This document shows positions 1,995-60,752 of a stretch of DNA of 64,000 bases, one piece after another. Made by a program: the position numbers and the translations under genes. This DNA comes from Eledone cirrhosa (taxonomy: Eukaryota). The stretch spans positions 42,532,001-42,596,000 of the forward strand of contig OZ024757.1 in assembly GCA_964016885.1 (NCBI GenBank), in the 5' to 3' direction. How positions within the stretch are numbered: position 1 is the stretch's first letter; the number at the start of each line of letters is the position of its first letter. Below the pieces are notes generated by a model that was not told the DNA's origin, did not search any database, and worked only from the letters and a program-made list of their open reading frames with translations.

Positions 1995-3564
1995 GTGACC
2001 CATGCTTCATTTATTCCTCACTTCTTTTCACCATGTCACACATCACAAACATCATCGTCGGATCGGATCGGGCGAATTGCCTGGACCAGCTCCAGTCTCC
2101 CTCTCCTAATGCCCCGTCCTCCGTCGTTGTTTTCATGTCTTCAATTGTTAGACTAACATCTTTAGTCAGTTGGTTGATATGTCATCTGAGGATGCTCGAT
2201 GTGAGAGTGTTCATGGGTTTATATCCACAAAAGAAGACTAATAAGCTTGTCTTTGCTTTCAGTAGCAGGGCCCAGCGCTTCTTATCTTTCTTTCCCTAAC
2301 TAAAGCTGGTACAGGAAGGATCTGACCATATAGTTCTTCTTTCAAGGAATTCTGCTTCCAGGACCTGTTCAACACTGTGCAACATTTGGGTGTATGTCCC
2401 ATCAAGCTTCTTCTCTCATCTAATCTAAAGTCATTGTCCATGCTAAGGAGTTATACAAAAGAACTGACTACAACTACATCACATACAACCTTGTATAGTT
2501 ATATACATACACTAATGTGCACTGCAATAGATATTGTAAATACACTTTCTAAACAGGAGGGATTGATGTATTAATATAATTATATGCTGTTAATGTATAG
2601 TATTTCAATTAATTAATGAAGAATATACTAAAATTATTAATTATTTCATTAGTAAGATAGCAACTTAATGTAAGGTTCTTATATAGAACCAGAGCTGGTT
2701 TTTGGCCAGGTTGTTATCAAGAGGGTGAACTGAAGAATGTGTCTGAGAGCCAGTTGTGTGTTTAACTAAAATGTGTTGTTCTTTATTTCAGGCTGTGATA
2801 GAAACCTTATCAATTGGTGCCCCCTTATTATTACCACCACTGAAGGAGAGAATGGAACTACTTCATTCCTTGCTCCCACAAGGCAGCGATAGATGGGAAA
2901 CACTATCTAGGGGCCAGGTAATGTTATCACATATTTCTACAGTATTTAGGGACCAGTTAACATTATCACATATTTCTACATTATTTAGGGACCACATAAC
3001 ATTGTATATTTCTTCATTATCACATATTTAGGGGTCAGGTCACAACAGTGTATATTTCTACATATGTAGGGACCACATAACATCATGGGAAACGATGATA
3101 ATGGTGATGATGATGTATATATTGTATGTCTTTTCTCTTCAGCGTATGCAACTTGACATCATTCTTGCGAGCCTTCAAGACAATTCCCACATCGCGTCCC
3201 TTCTCGGATTTGCTGAGCCATTTGACTCCACAATATCTACCAGTCCAGACTACGACAACACCATGGATGTTGAACTAGCTGAAGTATTAATGAAAACCGT
3301 CTTAAGGACACTTACTTTCCATACTGTACGATAATGTTTCACTCTTTCACTTTTTTTGTTCCTTTACTGGTTTCAATCATTAGACTGGCCATGCTGGGGC
3401 ACCACCTTAAAGGAATATTAGTCAACCCCAGTACTTATTTCTTTTCTAAAGCCTGGTTGTGCTTATTTTATCAATCTCTTTTTGTTGAACTGCTAAGTTA
3501 TGGGACATAAACACACACACACACACAGATACAATCTTTCTCTATCTGTCTCTCTTCCTCTTTT

Positions 3565-3640
<76 letters not shown>

Positions 3641-19647: not shown

Positions 19648-22600
19648 CTTTCTATTTGTCTTGCCCTCTTTATTTCTCTGTGTGTGTATATATCTGTATA
19701 TGTGTGTGTATGTATGTCTTCCTATTTCTGACTATATATATATGTATATGTCTCCCGTCTTCTCTCTTATCAACTTTATCACCTTCTCCTTCTCTTCCCC
19801 CAGTGATGCTGCCATCTCCAATCTTGACCCAATAGAACCAATTGAGTTTGACATCAATCACCTGTCTGGCCTCACCCCACACCTTTTACAGGCCGTCATG
19901 AAGTTGACCCTAATCAGTGATGAAAAACACTGTGCCCAGCTGACCCGGCAACACGAGTACAACTGCTCTAACAATGGAGCGCCTAAGAAGCCGGGGAAAC
20001 CTGCTGATGAACTGCACGAGGACCTAAACCCGGACGAAACTGCCGTGGACCCTGTTGGCACAGCTGTGGTTGCCGCTAACACCACCATCACCTCCGATGA
20101 TCAACCCCAGGCAGCTTACCAGGAACAAGTCTCCGACGAAAGCTGTCGACAGAGACCACCAACAGATCACAACGCAGATAAAAAACGACAGTGTCTTTTG
20201 CTGCACAGTGCTGCTAACTATGCTAGTTTGGGCACCCCGTTTCCACCGACACCACCACCACTACCGTCCGCCATGCGCAGTGCATCGGCATCTGTCTCGA
20301 TGGTGGACAGCCGAGAGGCCGTACAAGGGTCGCAGGTTGACATGTCTCAGGTATTTTCCAGCAGTCGGGAAAGTTCCTTAATAAACTCCAGTTTCTCCGA
20401 CACACCGTCTTGCGCTAACGAGATGACGGCGACACAAAAGTTCAGCAAAGAAGAAAGCTCTGAGGAGAACGTCTTTGAGGTGAATTCTTCGGAGGACAAC
20501 GCCTTGCAACACGAGCTGTTCAACTTCAGGATGGCGTCATTGAAGTTGGCCGCACTGAGGATGCTTTACAGAGTGATGCTCACCAATAAATATGCCGAGA
20601 TGCTGCTCGTGCCAAAGTCAGACCTGCGTGCTGAGAGCAGCAAAGCACTTCCCGACGGGACCGTGGTTAGACGAGACGACGACATGAAAGGGGAGCTACG
20701 TGCCATCATGAAGCAGATGGTGAAGCTGGCTACGGTTCCATCACCGTTCCGACGACTAGTGTCGTTGGTGGAACTTGAACGAGCCCAGAATGTTCTCTAC
20801 CAGGTCATGATACAGACTCAGTCTGACAACCAGGCTAACCTCTCACAGTATGAAGGTGAGTAGTTGTAACACACACATATACACCATACCACTCACACGC
20901 ATACCTCCATCCACACACATATGTGTATTCATTCGCACACAAATATATACTGATATACACAAATACACATACAGAGTAACACATATGTATATATATATGT
21001 GTAAAAGGTAAACAGAAATAACAACACAATCAGTACAGTATATGGAAGGAATATATTAGGTTAACGCTTGATATAGCAGGAAGAGAGTCTTAACGTTTCG
21101 GACGCTAGTCCTTCATCAGAAGAAAGAATGAGAAATAAGATAGATTGAAGGGAAGGGTGGGGTGGAATTGAATTGGAAAAAATGTCTTTAGATAAAAATA
21201 ACAGGTCCATTCATGTTGACATCATATATATATATATATATTCACTGTTTTTTTCTTGTGTCAATTTTCAGAACAACTGGATAAGCTGAGAGCATCAAAA
21301 GGTATGAAGGCAAGTGTTGACGTCAGCTGTAGCCCTCCCCTGGAGAGAAGTAATAGCACCAGTACTTCAGCATCTGTAGATGATAGTAATGTGAACAGTG
21401 GCACCAATGGGGTCGGGACTCGGCGTTCTAGTATGGACAGCAGTTCACTTCTACAGAGACACCAGCCTGTTGTACATAGGATCAGGACAATGTTAAGTGA
21501 ACCAAGGTTAGTTGACACTACACCGCATCACTATACTACACTGCACCACCACACTATACTACACTGCATTAAATGACACCACACTACATTACACCACTAT
21601 ACTACATGACACCACCATATTACACTACACTACATTACATGACACCACCATATTACACTACACCACCATCCTCAAGTTTGTTAATTCAAATGTTGATGAT
21701 TGTACTTTTCAAAGGATGTCTTGCTAATGTGGTTTGTTTTCTCTCTCTCTCTCGCAGTCTTTCAGCGGTCCCCATTAGCGTGTCACCACTACAACATCCG
21801 ACACTGTCTCCAGCAACTGTGACAGCAGTGAGTCCAACACCACAAACACCACCTTCACCTCTTTACGCTCCCCTCATAGAGATGGGTTTCAGTCTTAACC
21901 ACATTGTACAGGCAATGAGGGCCACAGGTTTGTAAAGCTACATCTTACTGTTTCTATTTCAACCTTCCATCCCTTCCATCCCTTCCCTACCTTCATACCA
22001 ACAATGGAATCTTCCATCTCTCCCCGACCTTGACACCAACAATAGAACCTTCCATCTCTCCCCTACCTTGACACCGATAGAACCTTCCATATCTCCCCTA
22101 CCTTGACACCAACAATAGAACCTTCCATCTCTCCCCTACCTTGACACCAACAATAGAACCTTCCATATCTCCCCTACCTTGACACCGATAGAACCTTCCA
22201 TATCTCCCCTACCTTGACCCCAACAATAGAACCTTCCATCTCTCCCCTACCTTGACACCAACAATAGAACCTTCCATATCTCCCCTACCTTGACACCAAC
22301 AATAGAACCTTCCATCTCTCCCCTACCTTGACACCAACGATAGAACCTTATATCTCTCCCCTACCTTGACACCAACAATAGAACCTTCCATATCTCCCCT
22401 ACCTTGACACCAACGATAGAACCTTCCATCTCTCCCCTACCTTGACACCAACGATAGAACCTTCTATATCTCCCCTACCTTGACACCAACGATAGAACCT
22501 TCCATATCTCCCCTACCTTGACACCAACAATAGAACCTTCCATCTCTCCCCTACCTTGACACCAACAATAGAACCTTCCATCTCTCCCCTACCTTGACAC

Positions 22601-25600
22601 CAACGATAGAACCTTCCATCTCTCCCCTACCTTGACACCAATGATAGAACCTTCCATATCTCCCCTACCTTGACACCAACAATAGAACCTTCCATATCTC
22701 CCCTACCTTGACACCAACGATAGAACCTTCCATATCTCCCCTACCTTGACACCAACGATAGAACCTTCCATATCTCCCCTACCTTGACACCAACGATAGA
22801 ACCTTCCATATCTCCCCTACCTTGACACCAACGATAGAACCTTCCATATCTCCCCTACCTTGACACCAATGATAGAACCTTCCATATCTCCCCTACCTTG
22901 ACACCAACGATAGAAACTTCCATCTCTCCCCTACCTTGACACCAACGATAGAACCTTCTATATCTCCCCTACCTTGACACCAACAATAGAACCTTCCATC
23001 TCTCCCCTACCTTGACACCGATAGAACCTTCTATATCTCCCCTACCTTGACACCAACAATAGAACCTTCCATCTCTCCCCTACCTTGACACCAACAATAG
23101 AACCTTCCATATCTCCCCTACCTTGACACCAACAATAGAACCTTCCATATCTCCCCTACCTTGACACCAACAATAGAACCTTCCATATCTCCCCTACCTT
23201 GACACCAACGATAGAACCTTCCATATCTCCCCTACCTTGACACCAACGATAGAACCTTCCATATCTCCCCTACCTTGACACCAACGATAGAACCTTCCAT
23301 ATCTCCCCTACCTTGACACCAATGATAGAACCTTCCATATCTCCCCTACCTTGACACCAACGATAGAAACTTCCATCTCTCCCCTACCTTGACACCAACG
23401 ATAGAACCTTCTATATCTCCCCTACCTTGACACCAACAATAGAACCTTCCATCTCTCCCCTACCTTGACACCGATAGAACCTTCTATATCTCCCCTACCT
23501 TGACACCAACAATAGAACCTTCCATCTCTCCCCTACCTTGACACCAACAATAGAACCTTCCATATCTCCCCTACCTTGACACCAACAATAGAACCTTCCA
23601 TATCTCCCCTACCTTGACACCAACAATAGAACCTTCCATATCTCCCCTACCTTGACACCAACAATAGAACCTTCCATATCTCCCCTACCTTGACACCAAC
23701 AATAGAACCTTCCATATCTCCCCTACCTTGACACCAACAATAGAACCTTCCATATCTCCCCTACCTAGACACCAACAATAGAACCTTCCATCTCTCCCCT
23801 ACCTTGACACCAACGATAGAACCTTCTATCTCTCCCCTACCTTGACACCAACGATAGAACCTTCCATATCTCCCCTACCTTGACACCAACAATAGAACCT
23901 TCCATCTCTCCCCTACCTTGACACCAACAATAGAACCTTCCATATCTCCCCTACCTAGACACCAACAATAGAACCTTCCATCTCTCCCCTACCTTGACAC
24001 CAACGATAGAACCTTCTATCTCTCCCCTACCTTGACACCAACAATAGAACCTTCCATCTCTCCCCTACCTTGACACCGATAGAACCTTCTATATCTCCCC
24101 TACCTTGACACCAACAATAGAACCTTCCATCTCTCCCCTACCTTGACACCAACGATAGAACCCCTCTTATAATAATGGCAATCTGTGTGCGTGAAGAATG
24201 GCTCAATATAAAGGACCCTATCATCCTAAAATGTCTGGCCTTCTGTCTGTCTGTCTCTATTGGAAATAATCAATTAATCAATAATTTATGTACCCCCTTC
24301 CCATCTCAATTACTTCCATCTAGGTGTGAACATCGAGGCATCTGCTCATGTAGTGAACACCCTGGCTACCTGGATGGTGGAACATCCCATCACAGAAACA
24401 TCCAACCAAAACGAACAATCCAGTGGTGGCGGTGCGGCCAGTTCTACATCCACCTGTGTACCTGTTGACCTGTCTTTTCCACCCACATCTCTCCCCTCCA
24501 GGGGAACACCACTCACAGACATGCTTAATGCCCATATATACAGAATTGCTTCCGACTGGTAAGTCATCTCTCTTCTTTCATTCTCATGAATAATTCTTCA
24601 ACACAACAAACTTTGTTTGATGATTGGATTAGTAACCTGACTGTATTTTTCTGGCTGTATTTCTAATGAAAACAAAAAGAAAGGATCCGATTGTGAGATC
24701 AGACCAAGGACACAATGTTTCTATTGGTCTTTCTATTGCTGATACTATCTGTTAGTCACAACTCCTGGCAGAAGAAAGGAGCTGATCATCAGATCAGACC
24801 AAAGAGACAATGTTTCTGTCAGTCACAACTCCTGGCAGAAGAAAGGAGCTGGTCATCAGATCAGACCAAAGAGACAATGTTTCTATTTATCTTTCCAGTA
24901 GCTCTAATTAAGTATCTGGTCTTTAAGGATCCGTCCAACCCTTACTAGCTGGGTAAACATACATTAAATAATGATGATATATGTTTGTATGTGCAGGGAA
25001 AACACCCTCCAGACGACAGAGGCACCAATGGCACATATTGAGACGTTGTCCGATCAATCGTCCGATGAACGTGAAGGAGAGATACACTTGGGACGCACAC
25101 GCAGGCGACGTCTGTGTCGTACACGGCACATGGATATACGTAATTACCTCACCAGACCTTGTACGTATGTCTCATGGATAGAGTTTCTTGATCACATACA
25201 CACAGGCTCTCTCTCTCTCTCTCTCTCTCTCAAATGCACATACACGCACGCTCTCTCTTACATACACTGGTTCTCTTACACACACAATCTCTCTCTCACA
25301 AACATACACACACATACACACTCTCATACATAAACACACATATACATTCTCACATACATTTACACTTTCACACACATGAACAGACACATACAAATGTAGA
25401 TATGTTGATGGTTGAGTGTGTATGTAGCTGTTTATCTCTCTCTCTCTCTGTCTTGTCCAGCTGGAACGAGAAGTCTCAGGGAGAGCCACCGGGAGAATCG
25501 ACCAGATCGTCAACATGAGATTGGTGAAGCCCGTCCCCTCTACGACTTGGAGTTTGATCTCTTTGATGATTTGTTGTATGAAGAAAATACTGATGCCTTC

Positions 25601-50500: not shown

Positions 50501-53500
50501 TCCTATCTCCCACTAGATGTCACCACCACTATCCTAACACTCCTATCTCCCACTAGATGTCACCACCACTATCCTAACACTCCTATCTCCCACTAGATGT
50601 CACCACCACTATCCTAACACTCCTATCTCCCACTAGATGTCACCACCACTATCCTAACTCTCCTATCTCCCACTAGATGTCACCACCACTATCCTAACTC
50701 TCCTATCTCCCACTAGATGTCACCACCACTATCCTAACTCTCCTATCTCTGACTAGATGTCACCACCACTATCCTAACTCTCCTATCTCCCACTAGATGT
50801 CACCACCACCCTAACTGTCCTACTTTCTATTTTATCTGCCACCAGAGGTAAGAAATGTAAACCCATCTTTGTCCAAGTGGCTCGGCAGGTGGTGAAGATG
50901 AAGCCTGAAGATCTGCGTCTCCCTGCCAGAGCGTGGAAGGTGAAGTTAATTGGAGAAGGAGCAGATGATGCTGGGGGAGTCTTTGATGACACCATTACAG
51001 AGATGTGCCAGGTAAGTACACACACCTGTGTGTGTATGTCACATATGTATGTATGTGTGTGTGTACATTGATGTTTCATGTGTGTATGTATGTGTAATGT
51101 ACCATGTTTATATGTGTGAGATGTGCCATGATGTATGTACACATTATGTTGTTATATATTATTTTATATTATATTATTTTTGCAGGAACTGGAGAAAGGT
51201 TTTGTGCCATTGCTGATTCCAACCCCAAATGAACGACATGAATCTGGAAACAACAGAGATAGGTAAGGGACCATATCAGTGTACATATACCCACACACCC
51301 TTGCTATGTCTGTCTGTTTGTGCCTGTGTGTATGAGTCTGTCTATGTGTGTTTGTGTATGTGTGAATATCTCTGTGCCTAACCACAATGCCCTCTCCCTT
51401 CTTCCCCTGTGTAACCCCCCACATGTATCATATCTCTCTCTCTGTCTCTGCAGATTCCTGCTAAACCCGTTATTGTCTTCTGAGGAACACATGAATATGC
51501 TGAAATTCCTTGGAGTGTTGTTTGGTGTTGCCATCCGTACGAAGAAACCATTAGATCTTCACTTAGCTCCGTGTGTCTGGAAACTTCTGGCTGGAATGGT
51601 GCTAGACATCAGTGACCTAGAAGAAGTAAGTATATAAACATATAATACATATATTGGTCAAATATTGGGCCTAGCAACCTTGGCAAGTGCTTTTATTCTA
51701 TGTATGAACATTAATAAATAATATAATATATAAATAATATTATATTTGGTATAAATCAAAGTTGTAATTGCTATATAGCAGGTACTAATCAATTTGTTTG
51801 AGGCAATCACAAAGCACTCAATAGAGCGGTATGTTAATGCATTATCGTCCAGAATAAACACAGCTGTTAAAAAGTGTGACACCAAGAAAAATGACTGAAG
51901 GCAGTGCCAGGCCATACATATACCACAACAACGATAAATAGAGAAATGTGGAAATCTAACCTGGACCATCTCTTATTGATTACAATCGATATAATCAAAT
52001 AAAATTTCATATATGTAATATTCTTACATAAGGTAGCTCTGGAATGGGTTTTTTAAAATCTTATTTCCATTGAACTTTCTACAGAACAATGAAATTGAGA
52101 TGTTTTTATTTCGATTTATTTTTTATATACATATATAATATATATATATGATGATGATATATAATATATATATATGATGATGATATATAATATATATATA
52201 TGATGATGATATATAATATATATATATGATGATGATATATAATATATATATATGATGATGATATATAATATATATATATGATGATGATATATAATATACA
52301 TATATGATGATGATATATAATATATATATATATGATGATGATATATAATATATATATATATGATGATGATATATAATATATATATATGATGATGATATAT
52401 AATATACATATATGATGATGATATATAATATATATATATATGATGATGATATATAATATATATATATATGATGATGATATATAATATATATATATGATGA
52501 TGATATATAATATATATATATGATGATGATATATAATATATATATATGATGATGATATATAATATCATCATCATATATATATATTATATATCATATTATC
52601 ATAATATGATGATGATATATAAATGATGGAGAGATGCTGTGCTGAAGAGGACCCGTCTCACCCTTGCAAGCAAGGAAAAAAGACATAGAATGATGATATA
52701 TATAAAATTAGTTACAACAGTGACTTATACAGGTACTTAAGTTTCGTTGGGTTATACACTCCAACTCATGCAGCCTGTTATAAAAATAAAGATGGCCTCT
52801 GGTGGTTGAATGTGATTTCTTTTGAGAAATATATATATGTGTGTGTGTCTCTAATATATATTTGCTGGAGAGGTTATAACGTTACACCAGTGTCTATATA
52901 TCTTAATTATTTATTCCAATCTCTTCCAGGTAGACAATTTCTTTGTCCAGACCATGGCTGGTATACGCAACATCCAGGAGAGCGGAGTTAATGAAACAAA
53001 CTTTCATGAAGTACGTACTTTTCCCCCAGTCCACCCTGTAAGGTGGTCATACTGGTGCCATAACAAAAGACACCCAGTCCACCCTGTAAGGTGGTCATAC
53101 TGGTGCCATAACAAAAGACACCCAGTCCACCCTATAAGGTGGTCATACTGGTGCAATGTAAGAAAGCACCCAGTCCACTCTGTAATGTGGTTGGCGTTAG
53201 GAATGGCTTCTAGCCATAGAAAGCCAAGCTAAATATAGATTGGATGAGCAAGACATGGTCACCTGACGTTAAATGGTGATGTGTGTGTCACTGTGTATAT
53301 ATGTCTGTGTGTGTATATATATCACTATATATACACACGCTGTGTGTGTGTATATATATCACTGTATATGTCACACTCTGTGTGTGTATATATGTCATAC
53401 TGTGTATGTGTGTATATCATTATCTCATTGTTGTTTGTGTTGCAGTATATACCACTGGACAGTTTTGAAGGACAGAGTGCCTCAGGCCAGATGCTCCCTA

Positions 53501-53752
53501 TAGTGTCGGGTGGCAAGAGTATTCCACTAACATTCCACAACAGGAAGGCCTACACTGAGGCTGCAACTCTCTATCGCTTGCATGAGATGGATAAACAAGT
53601 ATGTATATAATATTTCATTGTCTAGACCCTCCCTAACCCCAGCGTAGCACTGGTAGAGTATACCCAACTCTGACAACACACATATATGTCCCCCCTCTAT
53701 GTCTACAACTACATTATCTAATATGACCCCCTATATATATATATAACAATGG

Positions 53753-53806
<54 letters not shown>

Positions 53807-53812
53807 CAATGG

Positions 53813-53850
<38 letters not shown>

Positions 53851-55761
53851 GAGAGGTATAGAGATTGTTTTAGCGAGAAGCTAACAGCATTCTATAACAT
53901 ATATGTGACTATAACGTCAAGATGGGAAAAGTAGTTAACGTAGGGTTTAGGAAAAATAATTCGAACTCATCTCAAAAGAGAATCAGGATATAAATTCATC
54001 CACAGAATTTAGTGAAATCCAGGGAAAAATCAATAGACCTTTAACTCATGATAAAATAAAGTTTAAAACACTTATCCTTCAATTTGGAATAACATCAAAT
54101 GCTCTGTATAGTCTTAAAAGACTATTTCATGAAAACTTTCAGTGGAGATGGTCACGGTTGGATTTCATTCATCAGCAGAGCTCAACAGAAAACCAGGGCT
54201 CTCACAGTATTATAATCCGGAAAAGGGAATTCTAAAACTGGCTAGTTCGCCATCATGTGTAATTATGAAAAAGCACATGAGGAAAAAACGGGGCTAGTGA
54301 CGTCAGGATGGAAGTGAATGTTTATTTACGAGAAATAGCAGTCAAATACATTCTGAAAAAAACTCTACAAAAGGAGTTCAGCAAATAGCAATAATTATCA
54401 CAGTTTTTATGAAAAAAACCGGGATTAGTCACAGATAGTTTAAGCACTCTAGGAAAAGAATCCGAGTATAAATATAAATGAGAGGTATAGAGATTGTTTT
54501 AGTGAGATATATATATAACAATGGTTATATATATATATATATATAACAATGGTTATATATATATATAACAATGTTTATATATATATATATATAACTGTTT
54601 CTACTTTAGGCACAAGGCCAGCAATTACCCAGTGCATTACTGGTACTTTATTTTATCGACCCCGTAAGGATGAAAGGCAAAGTCAACCTCGGCGGGATTT
54701 GAACTCAGATCGTAAAGGGACGTAACTATGCTGGAAAGCATGGCGTCCGACCCTTTACTGATACTGCCAATCGATATATATATAACAATGGTTATATATA
54801 TATATATATATAACAATGGTTATATATATATATATATAACAATGGTTATATATATATATATGTCTAGTTGTGTCCATCCATGTTAGTCTGCTCATGAGAG
54901 GAATGAGTTAAAACGAAGGAAGGAAGATGGTGAAAATTCTACAGCAAAAAAAAAAAAAAAATTCAAACAGTATATACGAGATAGGGTATCAAATTACAGC
55001 CCTTTGCAGCTAGGGTGCCGCACTATGGCACTGCTGGGCTAAGGTAGCACACTATGGTACTGGGGAGCTTCAGTGAAACAGTATGAAAATATGGAGCTAG
55101 GGTGACCCTCCTCCCCTCCCACTCCATGGCAATGGGGAGATATGGTGGAAAAATACAGGACTTTGAAGCTGGGGTGCCGTACTATGGCACTGCGGAGCTA
55201 GGGTGGCACACTGTGAAGCTAGTATATATATATATATATATAAATGGCATATGATTATGGTTGATTGTTGTTGCTGTTGTAGGTTGCTGCTGTCCGAGAA
55301 GGTATGGCCTGGATTATCCCGGTCCCTCTTCTTTCCCTCCTCACAGCCAGAAATCTTGAACAGTTAGTCTGCGGCATGGAACAGGTCTCCATTGATGTCT
55401 TACGAAAAATTGTGAGGTAAATAACTATGTGTGGTGGTGTGGTGTGGTGGTGGTGGTGTGGAGGTGGGGTGGAGGTGGGGTGGTGGTGGTGTGGTGATGG
55501 TGTGGTGATGGTGTGGTGGTACTTGGTGTCAACTGATCACCATCTAGTTATCTGCAACTTGAGACTACCTGTAGCCAAAGAAACCCACAAAACTGACGAC
55601 AGGATAATGTTGGAAGCGTTGGTGGATAAGGATGTCAGGACCAGGTTTGCAGATACTCGGAGAACTCCCTGAGCAAACTGAGTACTCCTACGGTTATGTC
55701 TTTCTGCTTTCTAAAGGCAATATTTCGTCGTAGTTTTATTTGAAATATTTACTTCTAATAA

Positions 55762-55820
<59 letters not shown>

Positions 55821-58150
55821 TGTAAAGTGGTCGTGTAGGTGTCATGACAAAAAGCATCCAGCCATAGAAATCTAGCCAGAAACAGTTGTATCTGAGCAAG
55901 ACATGGTCACCTGACCCAACATGCCTCTAATGGGACAAAACTGTGTAAGTGTAACCCATGCTAGCGTGGAAGATAGATGTTAAATGATGATGATGATGAT
56001 GAAGTACAAGTCAGCAGTTTATAATTCACTTTCTTCATACCCTGCATACTAAAATATTGGTGATAAACTAACATATACTCTAATATATATATATATATAT
56101 ATTTAGTTATGTAATAAACAACATAAGATAATTATTTCATTTACCAGTGGTTTCTTGAAGGCAGATATTTATATCTGTCTTCAGTCGTCAGAATGAATGT
56201 GTTTTTATTTAATAAAAACACCATGTTATTCATTCTGACGACTGAAGACAGATATAAATATCTGCATTCAAGAAACTGGTAAATGAAATAATTATCTTAT
56301 GTTGTTTATTACATAACTAATAAGCTCTGTAGCCTACATAGAGCACTCTCTTTTCCTGTACCTTTCCTACGGAAATACTTCATTTATATATATATATATA
56401 TATATTTTTGCTTTGCGAAGTTTTTGATATGAAATCGTGTGTCGAAGCAAATATTGTTATACTTGGGGAGGGTCATATTGTTGTAATAATATTGCCAGAA
56501 TTAATAACAGAACACACTCACTGTTTGGTTGGTTTTCGCTTCAGTATCTTTTATATCAGTTAATTTATTCAGTCCTCAATGATTACCATTGACTGACCAA
56601 CGGTCAAAAATACAGATATAATATAGACACAAACACATATATATAGTCTAACAAACTTCTTTCATTGCACATCTGCAACATCGTCAGTGGTGCTATTATG
56701 TTTCCTCCTGTTGTATTGTATGCCTACGCCATCTTTATTTAATCTGTTTATTTATTTATTTATTTTTGTCTTCTTCTCTGCGTTTGCGTGTGTGTATAGT
56801 GTTTGATGTGTGTTCGCGTTTGGGTGACTGTTTTGGTTATTGTATTCTATCTTAGTTTACTAGTGTGTGTTTATATATGTTTGTTGTTATTGTGCTTGTG
56901 TATATATTTATTTATTTATTTATATTTCTCTTAGGTCAGTATTGTTTGTTTGGGTGTTGTTGTTATTCCATTCATTTTTTCTGTTTAGCTTTGGCCTTCT
57001 AAGTTCTATTTCACTGACCTCTCTGATTTGCCTATCTGCTGAGTCATTTCTATGTTGTCTATGTTACCGTCATGTTGTTGTCTCGCGTGTTCGTATAGTA
57101 CTGACCCGTTTTTTCGTCCTTTTAGTTCCCCCCAGTGTTGGTCTATCCTTTCACCTATGCTACGAGCTGTCTTGCCTATGTATGTTGTTGTCATGTTTCT
57201 GCAAGTACCCTCTGTACATCTTATGCTATAGACTACGTTTCTAGTTTTACAGTTTATCCGGGGGTTTACTTTACATATAATACATTTCCTATTAGTACAG
57301 TGGGTTTTCTTAAAAGGGTATGTTTTGCTGATCAGGGATTTTATGGTGGTTCCTGGCTTTTCTACCACCTTAATCTTTAAGTGGGTCTTTCTCAGGGCCT
57401 TTCTACACTGGTTAGCTAATTTCCCTCCAGGGGTAGCATCCACGAACATGACACTCTGGTATCTCTGGTTGTTGTACCATGAGGTGGCTTTCCCAACAGT
57501 GAGTGTGTTCTGTTATTAATTCTGGCAATATTATTACAACAACATGACCCTCCCCAAGTATAACAATATATATATATATATAAAATGTCTATCCGTGTGT
57601 CTATTGTTGTTCCAGGTACCGAGGTATTGAAGAATCTAGTCCGGTGGTCACATGGTTCTGGAAAGTTCTCGAAACATTTGCCAATGAAGAACGGATTCAG
57701 TTTCTTCGTTTCGTGTCTGGACGGACACGGCTTCCTGCAAACTCTTCAGACATTTCACAGAGATTCCAAATCATGAACTCGGACAGGGTGAGTATTGCTG
57801 GGCACTCTGGTGGGGTTGGGGGGTACTGAGGCGCACTGGTGGGGTCAGGGTGCTGGTGAGTATTGCTGAGACTGGTATGTAGGAAGACATTCTCTCTCTC
57901 TTCAATAAAGTCTCTCTATATCTCTTGCTATCTTTCTCTATCGCTCCCTCTCTTTAATAAAGTTTCTCTCTCCCTGTCTCTCTATCTCTCTCTCTCGCTA
58001 TATATGTATATATATATATATATATATACACATATATATTACACACAGACACACTCTTTCTCTCTCTCTATATATGTATATATCTCACTTTATCTCTATA
58101 TCTGTCTCACCTTCATTCAGCTTTTCTCTTTCTCTCTCTCTCTCTCTTTA

Positions 58151-58186
<36 letters not shown>

Positions 58187-58391
58187 TTTTTCTCTTCCTC
58201 AGAGTCCCGACAGTCTTCCTACATCTCAGACTTGTTTCTTCCAACTACGGCTGCCAATGTATTCAAGTCAGGAGGTGTTAGCCGAGAAACTGCGTTACGC
58301 CATTAATAACTGTCGTTCTATTGATATGGACAACTATATGCTCACCCGCAACACAGATAATGGACAGGGCTCCGACGAAGATCTCTGCTAG
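1829..58391 (+). CDS. HERC1: HERC1-like giant HECT E3 ubiquitin ligase, 5'-partial, 58 exons in window (listed individually)
   Basis: Spliced peptides match recalled HERC1 motifs in order: [23 protein letters not shown] ([11 protein letters not shown]), UBA-like (LIEMGFS), WD40 repeats, RCC1-like repeats ([12 protein letters not shown]), HECT ending [18 protein letters not shown] boundaries are phase-consistent. Confidence 0.97.
2792..2917 (+). CDS. HERC1: HERC1 exon
   Basis: AG/GT; [24 protein letters not shown]. Confidence 0.95.
3143..3325 (+). CDS. HERC1: HERC1 exon
   Basis: AG/GT; [13 protein letters not shown]. Confidence 0.93.
3974..4132 (+). CDS. HERC1: HERC1 exon
   Basis: AG/GT; [13 protein letters not shown]. 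Confidence 0.9.
4597..4726 (+). CDS. HERC1: HERC1 exon
   Basis: AG/GT; [16 protein letters not shown] (not in ORF track). Confidence 0.85.
5164..5358 (+). CDS. HERC1: HERC1 exon
   Basis: AG/GT; [14 protein letters not shown]. Confidence 0.88.
5646..5837 (+). CDS. HERC1: HERC1 exon
   Basis: AG/GT; [18 protein letters not shown]. Confidence 0.92.
6020..6780. repeat. 32-bp minisatellite, ~24 copies
   Basis: Unit ATAACCACACCCCTCTCACCCATCACCACTCT. Confidence 0.95.
6801..6980 (+). CDS. HERC1: HERC1 exon
   Basis: AG/GT; [11 protein letters not shown], phase consistent. Confidence 0.85.
7074..7185 (+). CDS. HERC1: HERC1 exon
   Basis: AG/GT; [15 protein letters not shown]. Confidence 0.9.
7919..8130 (+). 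CDS. HERC1: HERC1 exon
   Basis: AG/GT; [19 protein letters not shown]. Confidence 0.85.
8627..8755 (+). CDS. HERC1: HERC1 exon
   Basis: AG/GT; [16 protein letters not shown]. Confidence 0.88.
8835..9000. mobile_element. hAT-like MITE
   Basis: Imperfect TIRs CAGGGCCGGGTTTA / TAAATCTAGCACTG. Confidence 0.6.
9007..9215 (+). mobile_element. tRNA-derived SINE (family B)
   Basis: B box GGGTTCAATTCC then CTTGAGCAAAACACTTTATTTCAC core; related copies ~12955, 15015(-), 27395(-), 29170(-), 40975, 46335. Confidence 0.75.
9389..9445 (+). CDS. HERC1: HERC1 small exon
   Basis: AG/GT, phase consistent; [18 protein letters not shown]; low conservation. Confidence 0.65.
9869..10066. mobile_element. piggyBac-like MITE
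   Basis: TTAA on both flanks; TIRs CCCTTTACCATTTA / TAAATGCTAAAGGG. Confidence 0.7.
10160..10296 (+). CDS. HERC1: HERC1 exon
   Basis: AG/GT, phase consistent; [16 protein letters not shown]. Confidence 0.7.
10777..10849 (+). CDS. HERC1: HERC1 small exon
   Basis: AG/GT; needed to restore phase; [13 protein letters not shown]. Confidence 0.65.
10958..11917 (+). CDS. HERC1: HERC1 large exon
   Basis: AG/GT; [18 protein letters not shown]. Confidence 0.93.
12748..12891 (+). CDS. HERC1: HERC1 exon
   Basis: AG/GT; [13 protein letters not shown]. Confidence 0.92.
13040..13320. repeat. Degenerate ~100-120-bp tandem/dispersed repeat
   Basis: ATGATAGGACTGGGACCCCTATCATTAAA...GGAGGCCAGCTAAACCTAC; also 14200-14700 and ~46455-46650. 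Confidence 0.75.
13354..13460 (+). CDS. HERC1: HERC1 exon
   Basis: AG/GT; [17 protein letters not shown]. Confidence 0.9.
13720..14034 (+). CDS. HERC1: HERC1 exon (start of SPRY)
   Basis: AG/GT; [19 protein letters not shown]. Confidence 0.93.
14200..14700. repeat. Second array of the same ~100-120-bp repeat
   Basis: 4-5 degenerate units. Confidence 0.75.
14721..14960 (+). CDS. HERC1: HERC1 exon (SPRY)
   Basis: AG/GT; [21 protein letters not shown]. Confidence 0.96.
15241..15713 (+). mobile_element. RTE-like LINE 3' fragment in (TA)n
   Basis: [17 protein letters not shown]...RGRPRKTW, (GAT)n tail. Confidence 0.9.
15824..15907 (+). CDS. HERC1: HERC1 exon (SPRY)
   Basis: AG/GT; [19 protein letters not shown]. 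Confidence 0.95.
16117..16280 (+). mobile_element. tRNA-derived SINE (family A, Meta-domain-like)
   Basis: GAGTTCAAATCC B box; GCCTTTCATCCTTACGGGGTCGATAAAATAAAGTAC core. Confidence 0.8.
16347..16557 (+). CDS. HERC1: HERC1 exon
   Basis: AG/GT; [22 protein letters not shown]. Confidence 0.93.
16905..17115. repeat. 34-bp minisatellite, ~6 copies
   Basis: (CAC)n-CATCTCAGTTATTACATGA unit. Confidence 0.9.
17184..17278 (+). CDS. HERC1: HERC1 exon
   Basis: AG/GT; ends ETLCYE. Confidence 0.85.
17669..19039 (+). mobile_element. 5'-truncated RTE-like LINE with open RT C-terminal frame and embedded PHD finger
   Basis: [17 protein letters not shown]4HC3 finger, [16 protein letters not shown]; stop at 18686; (GAT)n tail; (TA)n on both sides. 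Confidence 0.93.
19325..19488 (+). CDS. HERC1: HERC1 exon
   Basis: AG/GT; [21 protein letters not shown]. Confidence 0.93.
19804..20855 (+). CDS. HERC1: HERC1 large exon
   Basis: AG/GT; [12 protein letters not shown]...[10 protein letters not shown]. Confidence 0.92.
21001..21222 (-). mobile_element. Penelope-like pseudo-LTR with minimal hammerhead (21088-21123)
   Basis: Minus strand TCTT-CTGATGA-AGGACTAGCGTCC-GAAACGTT-AAGA; reverse copy of 1-138. Confidence 0.75.
21272..21506 (+). CDS. HERC1: HERC1 exon
   Basis: AG/GT; [10 protein letters not shown], phase consistent. Confidence 0.8.
21758..21927 (+). CDS. HERC1: HERC1 exon (UBA-like)
   Basis: AG/GT; [19 protein letters not shown]. Confidence 0.9.
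21990..24165. repeat. 38-bp minisatellite, ~57 copies
   Basis: Unit CCTTCCATCTCTCCCCTACCTTGACACCAACAATAGAA with 35-bp variants. Confidence 0.97.
24324..24558 (+). CDS. HERC1: HERC1 exon (UBA-like)
   Basis: AG/GT; [12 protein letters not shown]. Confidence 0.9.
24997..25160 (+). CDS. HERC1: HERC1 exon
   Basis: AG/GT, phase consistent; [10 protein letters not shown]. Confidence 0.78.
25461..25624 (+). CDS. HERC1: HERC1 exon
   Basis: AG/GT, phase consistent; [11 protein letters not shown]. Confidence 0.78.
26106..27097 (+). mobile_element. Penelope-like element 3' remnant
   Basis: [15 protein letters not shown]...[15 protein letters not shown] resembles the PLE GIY-YIG C-terminus; degenerate hammerhead 26987-27087; (TA)n flanks. 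Confidence 0.75.
27686..27794 (+). CDS. HERC1: HERC1 exon (Cys/His motif)
   Basis: AG/GT; [23 protein letters not shown]. Confidence 0.9.
27870..28820 (-). mobile_element. Degenerate RTE-like LINE fragment with PHD finger
   Basis: [10 protein letters not shown]...WPCSICRKG...[12 protein letters not shown]...CSRC; frameshifted; CAT repeats at 3' end, (TA)n at 5' end. Confidence 0.9.
30329..30595. mobile_element. piggyBac-like MITE (AT-rich family; related pieces ~2600-2725, 4155-4450, 5390-5620)
   Basis: TTAA-CCCCTT...AAGGGG-TTAA. Confidence 0.55.
31278..31585. mobile_element. Head-to-head pair of family A SINE fragments
   Basis: Minus copy ~31278-31390, plus copy ~31425-31585. Confidence 0.75.
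32370..33160. repeat. Compound (CT)n/(CA)n-ACAACAG satellite with 312-bp local duplication
   Basis: GTTGATGGTTGTGATGG...TCTTAACAGC block repeated 312 bp later. Confidence 0.9.
33306..33575 (+). CDS. HERC1: HERC1 exon
   Basis: AG/GT; [20 protein letters not shown]. Confidence 0.92.
33727..33915 (+). mobile_element. Full-length family A tRNA-derived SINE
   Basis: A box TGGCAGTATCGG, B box GAGTTCAAATCC, Meta-like core, (ATT)n tail. Confidence 0.85.
34040..34340 (+). mobile_element. Old degenerate RTE-like fragment
   Basis: GATAGCTTC..TATCTAGG...ATGCTGCATGGTAGTGAG...CTGGAGAGAAATGAAGC similar to the other RTE copies. Confidence 0.7.
35211..35402 (+). CDS. HERC1: HERC1 exon
   Basis: AG/GT; [11 protein letters not shown]. 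Confidence 0.88.
36064..36238 (+). CDS. HERC1: HERC1 exon
   Basis: AG/GT; [21 protein letters not shown]. Confidence 0.92.
36518..36746 (+). CDS. HERC1: HERC1 exon
   Basis: AG/GT; [21 protein letters not shown]. Confidence 0.92.
37892..38087 (+). CDS. HERC1: HERC1 exon (3' end uncertain)
   Basis: AG/GT; ELMQAATG...[12 protein letters not shown]; alternative donor after 38039 possible. Confidence 0.82.
38448..38745 (+). CDS. HERC1: HERC1 exon (start of WD40)
   Basis: AG/GT; [12 protein letters not shown]...LEGHQDR. Confidence 0.92.
38751..38935. repeat. 56-bp tandem repeat, ~3.3 copies
   Basis: CCCACTTTATATTAGTAATTTTATTACTGTTCCTCTATCTGTTGCCCACTTATTAG. Confidence 0.9.
39005..39207 (+). CDS. 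HERC1: HERC1 exon (WD40)
   Basis: AG/GT; [10 protein letters not shown]. Confidence 0.93.
39702..39902 (+). CDS. HERC1: HERC1 exon (WD40)
   Basis: AG/GT; HYITAMTWP. Confidence 0.9.
40430..40554 (+). CDS. HERC1: HERC1 exon (WD40)
   Basis: AG/GT; [17 protein letters not shown]. Confidence 0.92.
41207..41409 (+). CDS. HERC1: HERC1 exon (WD40)
   Basis: AG/GT; [12 protein letters not shown]. Confidence 0.9.
41770..42482 (+). CDS. HERC1: HERC1 exon (WD40)
   Basis: AG/GT; [16 protein letters not shown]...[10 protein letters not shown]. Confidence 0.95.
42704..42903. mobile_element. hAT (Charlie-like) MITE
   Basis: TIRs CAGTGTTTTTCAAC / GTTGAGAAACGCTG. Confidence 0.7.
42976..43121 (+). CDS. HERC1: HERC1 exon
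   Basis: AG/GT; [13 protein letters not shown]. Confidence 0.9.
43155..43400. repeat. ~48-bp tandem repeat, ~5 copies
   Basis: TTACCATATTTCTAATGAAAGACACTGTCTATGTCATTAACCCTTTCA. Confidence 0.88.
43564..43755 (+). CDS. HERC1: HERC1 exon (RLD2 start)
   Basis: AG/GT; [19 protein letters not shown]. Confidence 0.94.
44208..44346 (+). CDS. HERC1: HERC1 exon (RCC1-like)
   Basis: AG/GT; [15 protein letters not shown]. Confidence 0.96.
44759..44940 (+). CDS. HERC1: HERC1 exon (RCC1-like)
   Basis: AG/GT; [17 protein letters not shown]. Confidence 0.97.
45423..45578 (+). CDS. HERC1: HERC1 exon (RCC1-like)
   Basis: AG/GT; [11 protein letters not shown]. Confidence 0.96.
45856..46081 (+). CDS. HERC1: HERC1 exon (RCC1-like)
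   Basis: AG/GT; [11 protein letters not shown]. Confidence 0.96.
46913..47157 (+). CDS. HERC1: HERC1 exon (RCC1-like)
   Basis: AG/GT; [12 protein letters not shown]. Confidence 0.95.
47471..47701 (+). CDS. HERC1: HERC1 exon
   Basis: AG/GT; [15 protein letters not shown]. Confidence 0.95.
47863..49870 (+). mobile_element. 5'-truncated, degenerate Tx1/L1-clade LINE ORF2
   Basis: [50 protein letters not shown]-terminal [15 protein letters not shown]; stops and frameshifts; AATAAA end. Confidence 0.92.
50069..50238 (+). CDS. HERC1: HERC1 exon
   Basis: AG/GT; [16 protein letters not shown]. Confidence 0.94.
50425..50812. repeat. 40-bp minisatellite, ~9.5 copies
   Basis: TCCTATCTCCCACTAGATGTCACCACCACTATCCTAACAC. 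Confidence 0.96.
50846..51011 (+). CDS. HERC1: HERC1 exon (HECT)
   Basis: AG/GT; [21 protein letters not shown]. Confidence 0.97.
51186..51262 (+). CDS. HERC1: HERC1 exon (HECT)
   Basis: AG/GT; [15 protein letters not shown]. Confidence 0.94.
51454..51625 (+). CDS. HERC1: HERC1 exon (HECT)
   Basis: AG/GT; [20 protein letters not shown]. Confidence 0.96.
52125..52620. repeat. (TA)n-GATGATGA composite minisatellite
   Basis: ~25-29-bp units, ~18 copies. Confidence 0.9.
52729..52778 (-). ncRNA. Minimal hammerhead ribozyme motif with 1-nt core insertion
   Basis: ACAGG-CTG(C)ATGA-GTTGG...CCAAC-GAAA-CTTAAG-TA-CCTGT. Confidence 0.65.
52930..53010 (+). CDS. HERC1: HERC1 exon (HECT)
   Basis: AG/GT; [13 protein letters not shown]. 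Confidence 0.92.
53446..53598 (+). CDS. HERC1: HERC1 exon (HECT)
   Basis: AG/GT; [12 protein letters not shown]...YRLHEMDKQ. Confidence 0.95.
53843..54507 (-). mobile_element. Retrozyme-like non-autonomous element, 629-bp unit plus ~36-bp terminal redundancy
   Basis: ATATAAATGAGAGGTATAGAGATTGTTTTAG(C/T)GAGA at both ends; contains a complete hammerhead. Confidence 0.75.
54101..54181 (-). ncRNA. Type I hammerhead ribozyme (complete)
   Basis: GCUCUG-CUGAUGA-AUGAAA..UUUCAU-GAAA-UAGUC-UUUUAA-GACUA-UA-CAGAGC; all three stems pair. Confidence 0.9.
54594..54772 (-). mobile_element. Family A tRNA-derived SINE
   Basis: Reverse complement of 33727-33915. Confidence 0.85.
55283..55416 (+). CDS. HERC1: HERC1 exon (HECT)
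   Basis: AG/GT; [17 protein letters not shown]. Confidence 0.96.
56103..56320. repeat. Long inverted repeat made of two hammerhead-bearing pLTR-like arms
   Basis: ~95-bp arms; plus-strand TCATT-CTGACGA...GAAA-CTGG-TA-AATGA at ~56230-56286. Confidence 0.8.
56640..57494 (-). mobile_element. Penelope-like element fragment (GIY-YIG endonuclease)
   Basis: [10 protein letters not shown]...KVVEKPG...CTNRKCIIC...NVVYSIRC...[16 protein letters not shown]; CTGACGA..GAAA motif downstream (~56650-56690). Confidence 0.85.
57616..57787 (+). CDS. HERC1: HERC1 exon (HECT)
   Basis: AG/GT; WFWKVLETF...[10 protein letters not shown]. Confidence 0.96.
58203..58391 (+). CDS. HERC1: HERC1 terminal exon with catalytic Cys
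   Basis: AG acceptor; [17 protein letters not shown] stop. Confidence 0.97.
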
Positions 58392-58583: not shown

Positions 58584-58589
58584 AATAAA
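58584..58589 (+). terminator. Candidate HERC1 polyadenylation signal
   Basis: AATAAA ~190 nt after the stop codon, followed by a T-rich tract. Confidence 0.5.
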
Positions 58590-58637
58590 CTATTTATATC
58601 ATCAGCAACTTTCATCTTTTTTCTTCCGTCTTTATTC

Positions 58638-59381
58638 TGGCCGGAGTATCGCTAAAAAGCTTTCTCCGATAATGTATTTATTTATTTACTCTTGGTGCAA
58701 CAGATTTGAAATTCCCGGTATAAGGTTAGACTTTCTTTGTTTATTTTTTTATATATGAATATTGATTGTTTCTTATATCTCATTCTGTTATTTTGCCCGA
58801 GAAAATATCTGTGCGTGTCATCAAACGTTGTACACACATAGATATTTTTTCAAGTTCCAATTGAGTTCTAGCACGTGGCCTGAATTCCTTTTAGAGTTCA
58901 TTGTCATGCGCATGTATTGTTTTTTTGGCAGTAATTTATTTCCTCATTTTTGAATCAGTTTGAGTATTTCTTTAGAACTGCTGGACTAGCAACCTAACAG
59001 ATACGTCAGGCACTGATTATGATTATCGCTAAATACTGATGTTGGTTAGATTATCAATATTAGTATTATTGGGGCACCCACTGATGAATTATAGGAGCCC
59101 ACTTGAATATATTTCTATTGATGGTATACAAGCTCCTACATAAATTGGTATAATTTCACCCAAATTGTAGGAATCCTATAATGAAACGAGACGTCCGTCT
59201 GGGAAGAGATATATTCGATATGTCTCATATGAAATAATACAGCCAATTTTCCACGCAATACATTTAGTTAGCACCCCGAACGCTTAATTAGGAATATACT
59301 CACTTATTTCCTAATGTTTGTTGAGTGAGTTGGATTTTGGCCGGAGTATCGCTAAAAAGCTTTCTCCGATAATGTATTTAT
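58638..59381 (+). mobile_element. Retrozyme-like non-autonomous element, 700-bp unit plus 44-bp terminal redundancy
   Basis: TGGCCGGAGTATCGCTAAAAAGCTTTCTCCGATAATGTATTTAT at 58638 and 59338; contains a complete hammerhead. Confidence 0.78.
59077..59203 (+). ncRNA. Type I hammerhead ribozyme (complete, GUC site)
   Basis: CCCA-CUGAUGA-AUUAUAGGA...UCCUAUAAU-GAAA-CG-AGACGUC-CG-UC-UGGG. Confidence 0.9.
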
Positions 59382-60752
59382 CTATATATATATATTTCTA
59401 TCTTATATATATATTTATATATATATCTATATATATATATAAAATAATTGTTTCTATTTTAGGCACAAGGCCAGCAATTACCCAGTACATTACTGGTACT
59501 TTATTTTATCGACCCCGTAAGGATTTTATATATATAAAATAATAAATCGATAACAGAAAAATTGATACAGAAGCGTCATCAAAGTTTTTTTCGAAAGATG
59601 ACTATTTCATCAATTTTTTTTTTTTTTTTTTGTCAGATTTGCTAGAAAGAGCAGTCAAACTTCTCCCCCATGCCATTTCAAAACATGAAGGGTAGATCTA
59701 GTCTTAGATGCCCACTGGATGGTCACTATTGGAATTTCTTTTGGGTCGTTTTCCTCAGCCAGGAGGCTGACCTGGAAGCTTAATAAATATTTTGTTCTCC
59801 ACGCCTCGTATTTTTGTGGCATCGTATATACACACTGAGGTTTTTACAGGGAGAAAAAAGGTTTTGGTATTTTCACTGTAATGGAAGTCGAAAATTAGGA
59901 TTATACCAAAACTAGTTGGCCGCTTTCATGATTCGGAGGGAATTTGTCTGCTATTTCTAGTAGATGATGCGAATATGTAATAAAAAGATATTGTTGTTTA
60001 TTTAACCCTGGACGATGAAAACAATGTATAATCAAAGTGAATCCATCCGTGACCATTGTGAATTTAGTGGCATCAAAGATTACATGCGTCCTTCATTGTT
60101 TAAGATGACGGGAGAAAAATATAGGGAGACAGGTGGTACTATTAAATTAGATATGGCCTGGGCCAATACTGGCCGAAACCTATCAAAGTTAAGACAATTT
60201 GCTGCTATTTCTAACACATGGGTCGGAATTTCTTTTTAAGGGAGACAACTCTTGGGGGCGGAGGTTTCTAGAAAATTTGATAAAATTTTCAGGTGTCCGA
60301 TAACCTGTATCAATTTTTCACACATATTTGAATATATAAAAATAAGCCCTTCGAAGCACTCGGTTCTGTTACGAGGTCCGCCAACGTGTGGGTTGTATTC
60401 TGGACTTAATAAAGTTTGTACATATGCTGCAACACTGTCTTCGATTTTACATAATCTCTCGCTCATATATATATATATTATATATTTAGGTTTGTTGGTT
60501 CACCACTGGATAGAACTGGTCATTCCGTATGGTCAACCTCGATGTAACATTATGGAGAGGACTCAACGTAATGCAACTCACCCGTCTTCGTTTGTGTAGT
60601 TGGTGGTGCGAGTACGGAGTTAATTATTATAAGATAACAGCTTCTACCCCGCGGCCAACCGGGGTAGAAGCTGCTAAATGTTCGGTCGCCCTCATGTCTC
60701 TGATTTTCAGCCCCATGGGTTTTGTCTATTATATTCCTTTGTTATATTTCGA

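Follow-up and report, generated by a model that had tools for sequence, protein, structure and literature searches.

A 629-nt hammerhead element of Eledone cirrhosa with a probable fixed internal start of reverse transcription and a probable circular RNA template

How did a non-coding stretch of DNA with a hammerhead motif and a short repeat at its ends come to lie within a HECT-domain gene of Eledone cirrhosa, and from what kind of template was it copied? The locus belongs to a window of 64,000 nucleotides, the whole stretch of DNA analysed here (G000:C18:42532001-42596000; contig OZ024757.1), in a genome of 3.0 Gb, and its features are collected in Table 1. An earlier note, made from the letters alone, described a terminally redundant element with a direct repeat of about 36 bp and one mismatch. 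The repeat is real, its copies at 53843-53878 and 54472-54507 being 36 nt long, 97.2% identical and spaced by 629 nt, with the sole mismatch at a CpG, but terminal redundancy is not what it denotes: the 36 bp are the stub of a second unit, and other copies of the family hold as little as 32 nt or as much as over 12 units. The insertion ends at about 53846 (…CUCUCAUUUA), the last 3-5 nt being indistinguishable from the (TA)n target. With 213 G+C among its 629 positions, the unit has a low GC content, and it contains just two reading frames, of 38 and 49 aa, both on the opposite strand.

Exons of the HECT domain (Pfam PF00632) occupy 51467-51673, 55283-55417, 57614-57781 and 58200-58319 of the plus strand and flank the element, which is therefore intronic and antisense and, as had been noted from the letters, set in a (TA)n-ACAATGGT array. 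The single exon 53446-53598 received no name from Pfam or PDB and gave a weak HECT E3 match (E 0.012); a contig of 5,442 nt from run X4, which looks spliced, covers only the exon 53446-53600. The host gene presumably resembles HERC1. Fragments of a very abundant SINE-like repeat come directly after the TA arrays, both here (54594-54770) and beside a second hammerhead element of 701 nt in the same window (59445-59530), and a minisatellite with a 38-bp period (58 copies, 94% matches) occupies window positions 21972-24162.

Table 1. Coordinates of the 629-nt element, its surroundings and its sister families (window positions unless a locus is named)
Feature	Position	Strand	Remark
Whole insertion	53846..54507	-	one 629-nt unit and the stub of the next, 5'-truncated unit
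Full 629-nt unit	53843..54471	-	non-coding, U-rich
Stub of second unit, 36 nt	54472..54507	-	one CpG-type change relative to the first unit
Fixed 3' end region, putative internal start of reverse transcription	53843..53880	-	about 260 nt 3' of the cut
(TA)n-ACAATGGT array, 3' side of element	53732..53847		insertion target
(TA)n-ACAATGGT array, 5' side of element	54507..54593
Host HECT-domain exon upstream of intron	53446..53598	+	AG/GT bounded, in frame with next exon
Host HECT-domain exon downstream of intron	55283..55417	+	Pfam PF00632
Type I hammerhead (predicted)	54181-54101	-	strict descriptor and folding
Stem I, 6 bp	54181-54176/54106-54101	-
CUGAUGA	54175-54169	-
Stem II, 6 bp	54168-54163/54134-54129	-	28-nt loop
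GAAA	54128-54125	-
Stem III, 6 bp	54124-54119/54114-54109	-	plus A15.1-U16.1 pair
Predicted cut	between 54107 and 54106	-	after AUA
701-nt element ("700-bp element")	58634-59383	+	hammerhead 59077-59203, 2-bp stem III, GUC site
598-nt family	L201:1692-2316	-	TA-targeting, partial tandem, fixed 3' end

The hammerhead reads GCUCUG-CUGAUGA-AUGAAA...UUUCAU-GAAA-UAGUCU(UUUA)AGACUA-UA/CAGAGC, the slash marking the predicted cut. It is the sole match to a strict descriptor in the 64-kb window, where none of 30 shuffled windows gave any, and the type I motif identified earlier on the minus strand is thus borne out. All three stems are present in the minimum free energy structures, whether of the fragment or of the unit in linear or circular form, the circle being the fold that the earlier note had proposed to compute, and the pair probabilities in the circular fold are 0.87-0.88 for stem I, 0.64-0.72 for stem II and 0.85-1.0 for stem III. 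The 106-nt hammerhead fragment is no more stable than its shuffles (z -0.43), in contrast to the 629-nt unit, which is more stable (z -3.46 against 20 shuffles). Rfam gave no match in the window at the gathering score, nor for the hammerhead of the family, taken from one locus (L001), at E<=5. AUA is a workable hammerhead cleavage site.

The window copy is one member of a large family. An exact 28-nt hammerhead pattern has 525 matches in the genome (control 0), a looser core pattern recovers at least 1,856 core-intact hammerheads (reversed control 0), and a DNA search with the unit produced 2,801 candidates, 40 of which were scored and yielded 85 matches, the full-length ones 96-100% identical and many of them tandem at about 630 bp. 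Forty diverged loci, hand-picked from the first 100 of the 1,856 matches with a preference for variant hammerheads, are for the most part 76-88% identical to the window copy and have kept the unit length, so that the family comprises both old and young lineages. The core and stem I were held fixed by the search pattern and are hence uninformative on constraint. Elsewhere in these diverged copies, stem III is 97.5% paired while loop III takes indels; N7 varies freely (U20/G13/C7); the pair 10.2:11.2 is C-G in 27, U-A in 8, U-G in 3 and something else in 2 of 40 distinct rows; the pair 10.4:11.4 shows two double changes among the 40; and stem II covaries, none of 500 shuffles attaining the score, the rows being relatives that represent few independent events. 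GAAA and the UA site are invariant in 35 full units that were picked for their overall similarity. The hammerhead of the family is predicted to be self-cleaving. The A-U pair at the base of stem II, which the earlier note saw in both hammerhead elements, is indeed found in the window copies of the 629-nt and the 701-nt element, but it is no trait of the 629 family: position 10.1:11.1 of the diverged copies is U·U in 22, A-U in 11, A·C in 4, unpaired in 2 and C·U in 1, that is, mostly unpaired, and the A-U pair is therefore the state of a lineage.

The manner of copying is recorded in the ends of the insertions. We number the phases of the unit from 1 to 629 on the hammerhead strand, so that the cut falls before phase 366. 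The 30 best-scoring loci, some of them overlapping, all end a few bases from one 3' point and have TA-rich flanks in 29 cases. A further set, the first 40 additional loci among the 525 matches, was picked by the hammerhead to avoid anchoring on the 3' end; 38 of these share that end, in (TA)n and 260 nt past the predicted cut, whereas their 5' ends are scattered all round the unit, with at least one whole unit in 20. The permuted copies expected earlier thus turned out, once the breakpoints were mapped, to vary at the 5' end alone. An adjacent inverted arm was seen in none of these 40 loci. Among the diverged loci, 38 of 40 extend to phase 625-629; of the other two, one ends at 615 and one continues beyond the sequence examined. 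Where copies were chosen on contig 1 by their 3' end (n=43), the median length is 63 nt, and five hold at least one unit. In 47 loci, (TA)n adjoins the 3' side of the copy 44 times and the 5' side 37 times, and no regular target duplication was found (direct in 3/47 and inverted in 4/47, against about 3% in mismatched pairs). The flanks of L018 and L023 carry short inverted target duplications across the insertion, of 20 and 12 nt; overall, such inverted matches are near the level of chance.

From the fixed 3' end and the scattered 5' ends we infer target-primed reverse transcription from one start, located about 260 nt downstream of the cut; in tandem units of the family, an AU-rich stretch (…AUUUAUAUUUAUA) comes after the fixed 3' end region. 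That the element is non-autonomous and copied from RNA with a fixed start appears close to certain. Taken alone, the window copy could pass for an LTR-like element, or for a satellite or transposon propagated as DNA, the 36 bp being then a true terminal repeat or a target-site duplication; this explanation is already contradicted, and hardly any probability attaches to it, given a redundancy that may be absent or amount to many units, the truncation of copies at one end while the other is fixed, and target duplications that occur at the level of chance.

The positions at which copying stopped were pooled in a truncation map of 144 loci, in two of which the longer neighbouring fragment was taken. 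The map leaves out loci with internal deletions or fusions (L132, L213, L221, L251, L310, L315, L316, L317, L320), with incomplete sequence (L102, L108, L297) or in duplicated regions (L121-L123), as well as overlapping duplicates. In 73 passes over the cut, no stop falls within 3 nt of it, where 1.15 would be expected by chance; a zero of this size excludes frequent run-off and is no depletion. Cleaved linear RNA is, therefore, not the usual template. Stops within the hammerhead body number 20 against 10.7 expected, and an early-abort class of about 59 nt is evident at phases 560-575, with stops in 18 of 38 first passes versus 4 of 89 later ones. A second start site 59 nt upstream was considered and, with two genome matches, rejected for that site. 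An excess of stops just past a full round, near a shared motif, seemed to be present in 20 loci (p 0.02), but the pooled map holds 9 against 7.9 expected, and so the 36 nt of the window copy represent an ordinary truncation point.

Whole-unit stops (phases 1-8) are slightly enriched, at 6 against 1.3 expected, and this is one of the points in favour of a SINE-like element, copied by a TA-targeting reverse transcriptase of LINE type from a linear monomer that ends at the unit junction, with tandems produced by template jumps. The single arm, the single start and the absence of a second site would agree with such an element as well. The unit junction is TA-like, however, which can account for the whole-unit stops; moreover, no tail sequence separates the units, and cleavage by the hammerhead would place RNA ends at phase 366, away from the junction. 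We regard this scenario as improbable.

The units within an insertion bear on whether one template or several were used. In a first set, divergence is 0.87% within insertions (56 pairs) versus 3.8% between them (2,794 pairs), and in an older set, 6.2% versus 12.5%. For alleles found in more than one locus, over about ten lineages, every overlapping unit has the allele in 209 cases and only part of the units in 42; the units of L161 (3.5 units) and of L210 (3.4 units) are identical; and there are a few changes, private to a locus, that turn up in 3-5 units. The uniformity of the lineage alleles and the recurrence of private changes imply a bottleneck of one unit followed by re-multimerisation. 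The nearest neighbour lies in the same locus for just 33 of 66 units, because the young lineages are near-identical across loci. With respect to marks of RNA editing repeated in all units, A>G accounts for 5/20, compared with 11/106.

Arrays of at least five units (L160, L206, L207, L302, L297) consist of ABAB or ABB blocks with a terminal unit of ancestral type and are the products of later local block duplication; L012, with three units, may have been duplicated locally too, and two lineages are combined in each of the mosaics L014 and L005. Given this local duplication, long arrays are weak evidence of rolling. One of them, an old array of at least 13 units at L297 (G000:C1:82126500-82136400), has dimer blocks that alternate between intact and broken hammerhead cores. 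We considered and rejected dimer circles derived from dead hammerheads: L160 and part of L297 do have intact cores in alternation with broken ones, but in L206 and L302 the alternation occurs with intact cores, and this, together with the ancestral terminal units, makes local duplication the explanation of the alternating arrays.

The same duplications, evident in the five arrays just named, count in favour of a reading that keeps the element and the enzyme and changes the template, which would be the uncleaved linear transcript of a tandem locus with an internal start in any unit. The arrays would then be homogenised and lengthened by local unequal exchange, and the hammerhead would serve another step, for example, freeing the RNA from host transcripts. 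According to the accessible text of PMC11167929, uncleaved RNA is the main template of an Anolis element, and its hammerhead mutants insert normally; non-autonomous elements without a hammerhead also go head-to-tail, namely Chlamydomonas MRC1, as far as the available part of PMC8557442 describes it, and the 598-nt family of Table 1, in which no hammerhead was found. Against this reading, each lineage would require a homogenised multi-unit source of its own, copies of 1.2-1.9 units already share lineage alleles between the partial and the full unit, and an active hammerhead of monomer type, with 7 bp in stem III, should leave 5' ends at the cut, where 0/73 passes stop. We consider an uncleaved template, the chief alternative, unlikely, if by no means negligible, and a covalent circle as the main template reasonably probable.

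The enzyme that made the copies is likely of Penelope type. Penelope-like elements with a reverse transcriptase and a GIY-YIG domain are abundant in the genome (10,597 GIY-YIG candidates, of which 150 were scored and 35 retrieved), and the sampled families terminate in (TA)n. Between the 629 family and these sampled families there is no detectable homology: the unit resembles no 3' end of five of them (A-D, F), has no similarity to anything at 30 GIY-YIG loci, and is continuous with no Penelope-type reading frame in any examined copy, nor are its flanks enriched in Penelope-like sequence (family A in 9/388 flanks versus 8/306 control pieces). Two fusion loci point to two different Penelope-like families: in L221, phases 163-396 are joined to the 3' end of family A with a 23-nt inverted piece at the join, and in L284, a whole unit is joined to the terminal repeat of family B. 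Such fusions could be template switches or insertions of one element into another; they are located at about 2850-3290 (L221) and about 3170-4000 (L284), both on the minus strand. Long Penelope-type frames with reverse transcriptase and GIY-YIG domain, of 604-1,096 codons from stop to stop, are present at L124-L128, and in the terminal repeat of the L127 family there is a minimal hammerhead in which U·U occupies the base of stem II. At L122, L123, L130, L182, L232, L239 and L250, members of the 629, 701 and 598 families and Penelope-like ends have accumulated within one (TA)n array or in adjacent ones, which suggests shared hot targets.

The motif TCGCTAAAA, found at the 3' ends of the 629-nt and 701-nt elements, was entertained as a recognition signal of the enzyme and has been downgraded to a weak lead. 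The pattern has 1,079 matches versus 1 in the control, and the last 45 nt of the two elements gave p 0.002 against shuffles; yet at least seven other registers of the 629 score equally, older 629 subfamilies read TTGCTACAA, ACGCTCACAA and others in its place, and with a looser version of the pattern, the control reaches the level of the signal (4,350 versus 9,171). The searchable text of the PMC8557442 supplement does not contain TCGCTAAAA.

The two sister families have ends of the same kind. The 701 family has 547 exact hammerhead matches and one 3' end in 25 of 29 loci. Its copy in the window starts about 243 nt past the stop codon of the host gene (58391), in sense orientation and just after an AATAAA at 58584; if the 3' UTR of the host reads on, the hammerhead of this copy would lie in the mRNA. 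At L123:2756-3198 (minus strand) lies a relative of the 701 family, 77% identical, in whose hammerhead stem II has undergone a compensatory change and loop III is shorter. Homology of the whole 629 and 701 units was rejected, the alignment reaching a z of just 2.1, and the earlier view that the two elements are unrelated in sequence largely stands, apart from one 9-mer near both 3' ends that is not conserved in the older 629 subfamilies. The 598-nt family, with further loci at L171, L175, L176, L181, L182, L185 and L198, has no canonical hammerhead and no Rfam match in the copies examined; outside the 598 unit, at L201:5632-5702 (minus strand), there is a sub-threshold match to Rfam Hammerhead_HH9 (31.8 bits, E 9.5e-5). 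All three families have a short motif near the 3' end in common, and because this motif varies within the 629 family, a common ancestry or a common enzyme of the three is unproven.

Several retrozyme-like families thus coexist in this genome, as had been surmised from the window, but their size is no novelty: the accessible part of 10.64898/2026.07.22.740005 gives consensus lengths of 51-972 bp for animal non-LTR retrozymes, with a mean of 650 in ray-finned fish. At the level of sequence, the 629 element shows every feature of this class. Metazoan non-LTR retrozymes, as portrayed in the available text of PMC7229834, PMC7761336 and 10.64898/2026.07.22.740005, likewise carry a type I hammerhead in each head-to-tail unit, are non-coding, low in GC and free of LTRs, number thousands of copies and co-occur with Penelope-like elements. 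Hammerheads in at least two consecutive units are found in L161, L206, L210, L302 and others of our loci, and the window copy has one. Within the same partial accounts, there are also differences: the unit exceeds the circles confirmed by northern blot, which measure 170-400 nt, though it is inside the published range; stem III, of 1-2 bp with a palindromic loop in the published retrozymes, has 7 bp here, and loop II has 28 nt; target duplications, long when present in metazoan retrozymes, are not regular in the 629 family; and the fixed 3' end, the (TA)n targeting and the read-through of the cut are features that these accounts do not describe. Among the open-access papers surveyed, we found none that treats a retrozyme from a cephalopod or fixed-start footprints of a retrozyme; paper supplements may list similar families.

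Penelope-like elements with an endonuclease offer the other half of the comparison. In the accessible portions of PMC4209133, PMC8557442 and PMC11167929, they resemble the 629 family in their partial tandems, 5' truncation and AT-rich or (TA)n targets, and in that reverse transcription starts internally, on the downstream side of the type I hammerhead of their pseudo-LTRs; the first position of stem II is variable in these hammerheads, too, and is U·U in family B here. The 629 family differs in lacking a reading frame, an inverted 5' arm and the "tail" with two sites, the arm and the second start site being, in the same portions, frequent in Penelope-like insertions and not universal. The non-autonomous Chlamys elements such as MRC1, in the part of PMC8557442 at hand, also form multicopy head-to-tail insertions with pseudo-LTRs, but they mostly lack canonical hammerheads and match an autonomous partner at the 3' end, whereas no partner of the 629 family was found in the sampled families. 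Plant LTR retrozymes, according to the text available for PMC7761336 and 10.64898/2026.07.22.740005, share the hammerhead, a size of 600-1000 nt and a proposed circular intermediate; however, their hammerhead is of type III and lies in true LTRs, PBS/PPT are present and target duplications measure 4 bp, whereas the 629 family has a type I hammerhead, no LTR or fixed repeat and no regular target duplication.

We read the 629 element as an animal non-LTR retrozyme and give a probability of roughly 0.6 to the explanation in which TA repeats are nicked by a Penelope-like enzyme that takes a probably circular, unit-length RNA as its template, with a single internal start. The cycle would begin with transcription of loci that hold at least two hammerheads; runs of U7 argue against Pol III. 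The hammerheads are predicted, from structure and covariation, to excise the 629-nt monomer, which would be ligated into a circle by analogy with the retrozymes of coral, mussel and axolotl, in which RNA circles have been demonstrated according to the accessible text of PMC7229834; cleavage, in the available part of 10.64898/2026.07.22.740005, was obtained in 1/9 tested retrozyme dimers. A GIY-YIG endonuclease would then nick (TA)n, and reverse transcription would start at the AU-rich stretch about 260 nt 3' of the cut, where the fixed end is observed, much as a Penelope-like element initiates internally at AT-rich nicks in vitro in the portion of PMC11167929 available. In the footprints, copying continues past the cut site as well as the junction of units and breaks off at scattered points, leaving from 32 nt to several units, and some arrays grew later by the local block duplication observed. 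Copying of a circle for more than one unit by a Penelope-like enzyme has already been proposed, as the accessible parts of PMC4209133 and PMC7229834 indicate. More tentatively, and with odds somewhat short of even, the whole footprint could reflect rolling reverse transcription of a ribozyme-made, religated circle with one internal start and single-arm (TA)n priming, perhaps by an enzyme, Penelope-like or other, that is as yet unrecognised and acts on the 701-nt and 598-nt families as well.

The window copy itself, with its single hammerhead, cannot release unit-length RNA by double cleavage, and with one unit plus 36 nt, antisense in an intron, it is likely a dead-end insertion. Contigs of the 629 family in run X4, of 335 and 355 nt, include one, the shorter, that bridges the cut site, strand and ends being invisible in contigs; short reads across 54107/54106, once suggested as a sign of circles, are non-diagnostic since a religated junction is identical to the DNA sequence. 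The 629 family belongs to a previously known class of elements, its size and intronic copy are ordinary, and it is the single arm and the single start that distinguish it. For the route from retrozyme RNA to DNA, as well as for the hammerheads and partial tandems of Penelope-like elements, explanations have been proposed since 2014 and are unproven, and in the sole in vitro study the hammerhead proved dispensable. To these, the 629 family brings footprints at the level of single bases, namely, one internal start, no run-off at the cut, units that are uniform within lineages and a covarying ribozyme, and it provides a small substrate on which circular and linear templates can be compared directly. 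If rolling, single-start copying is true, it would supply the missing step from retrozyme circles to genomic copies, with a defined start for reconstitution.
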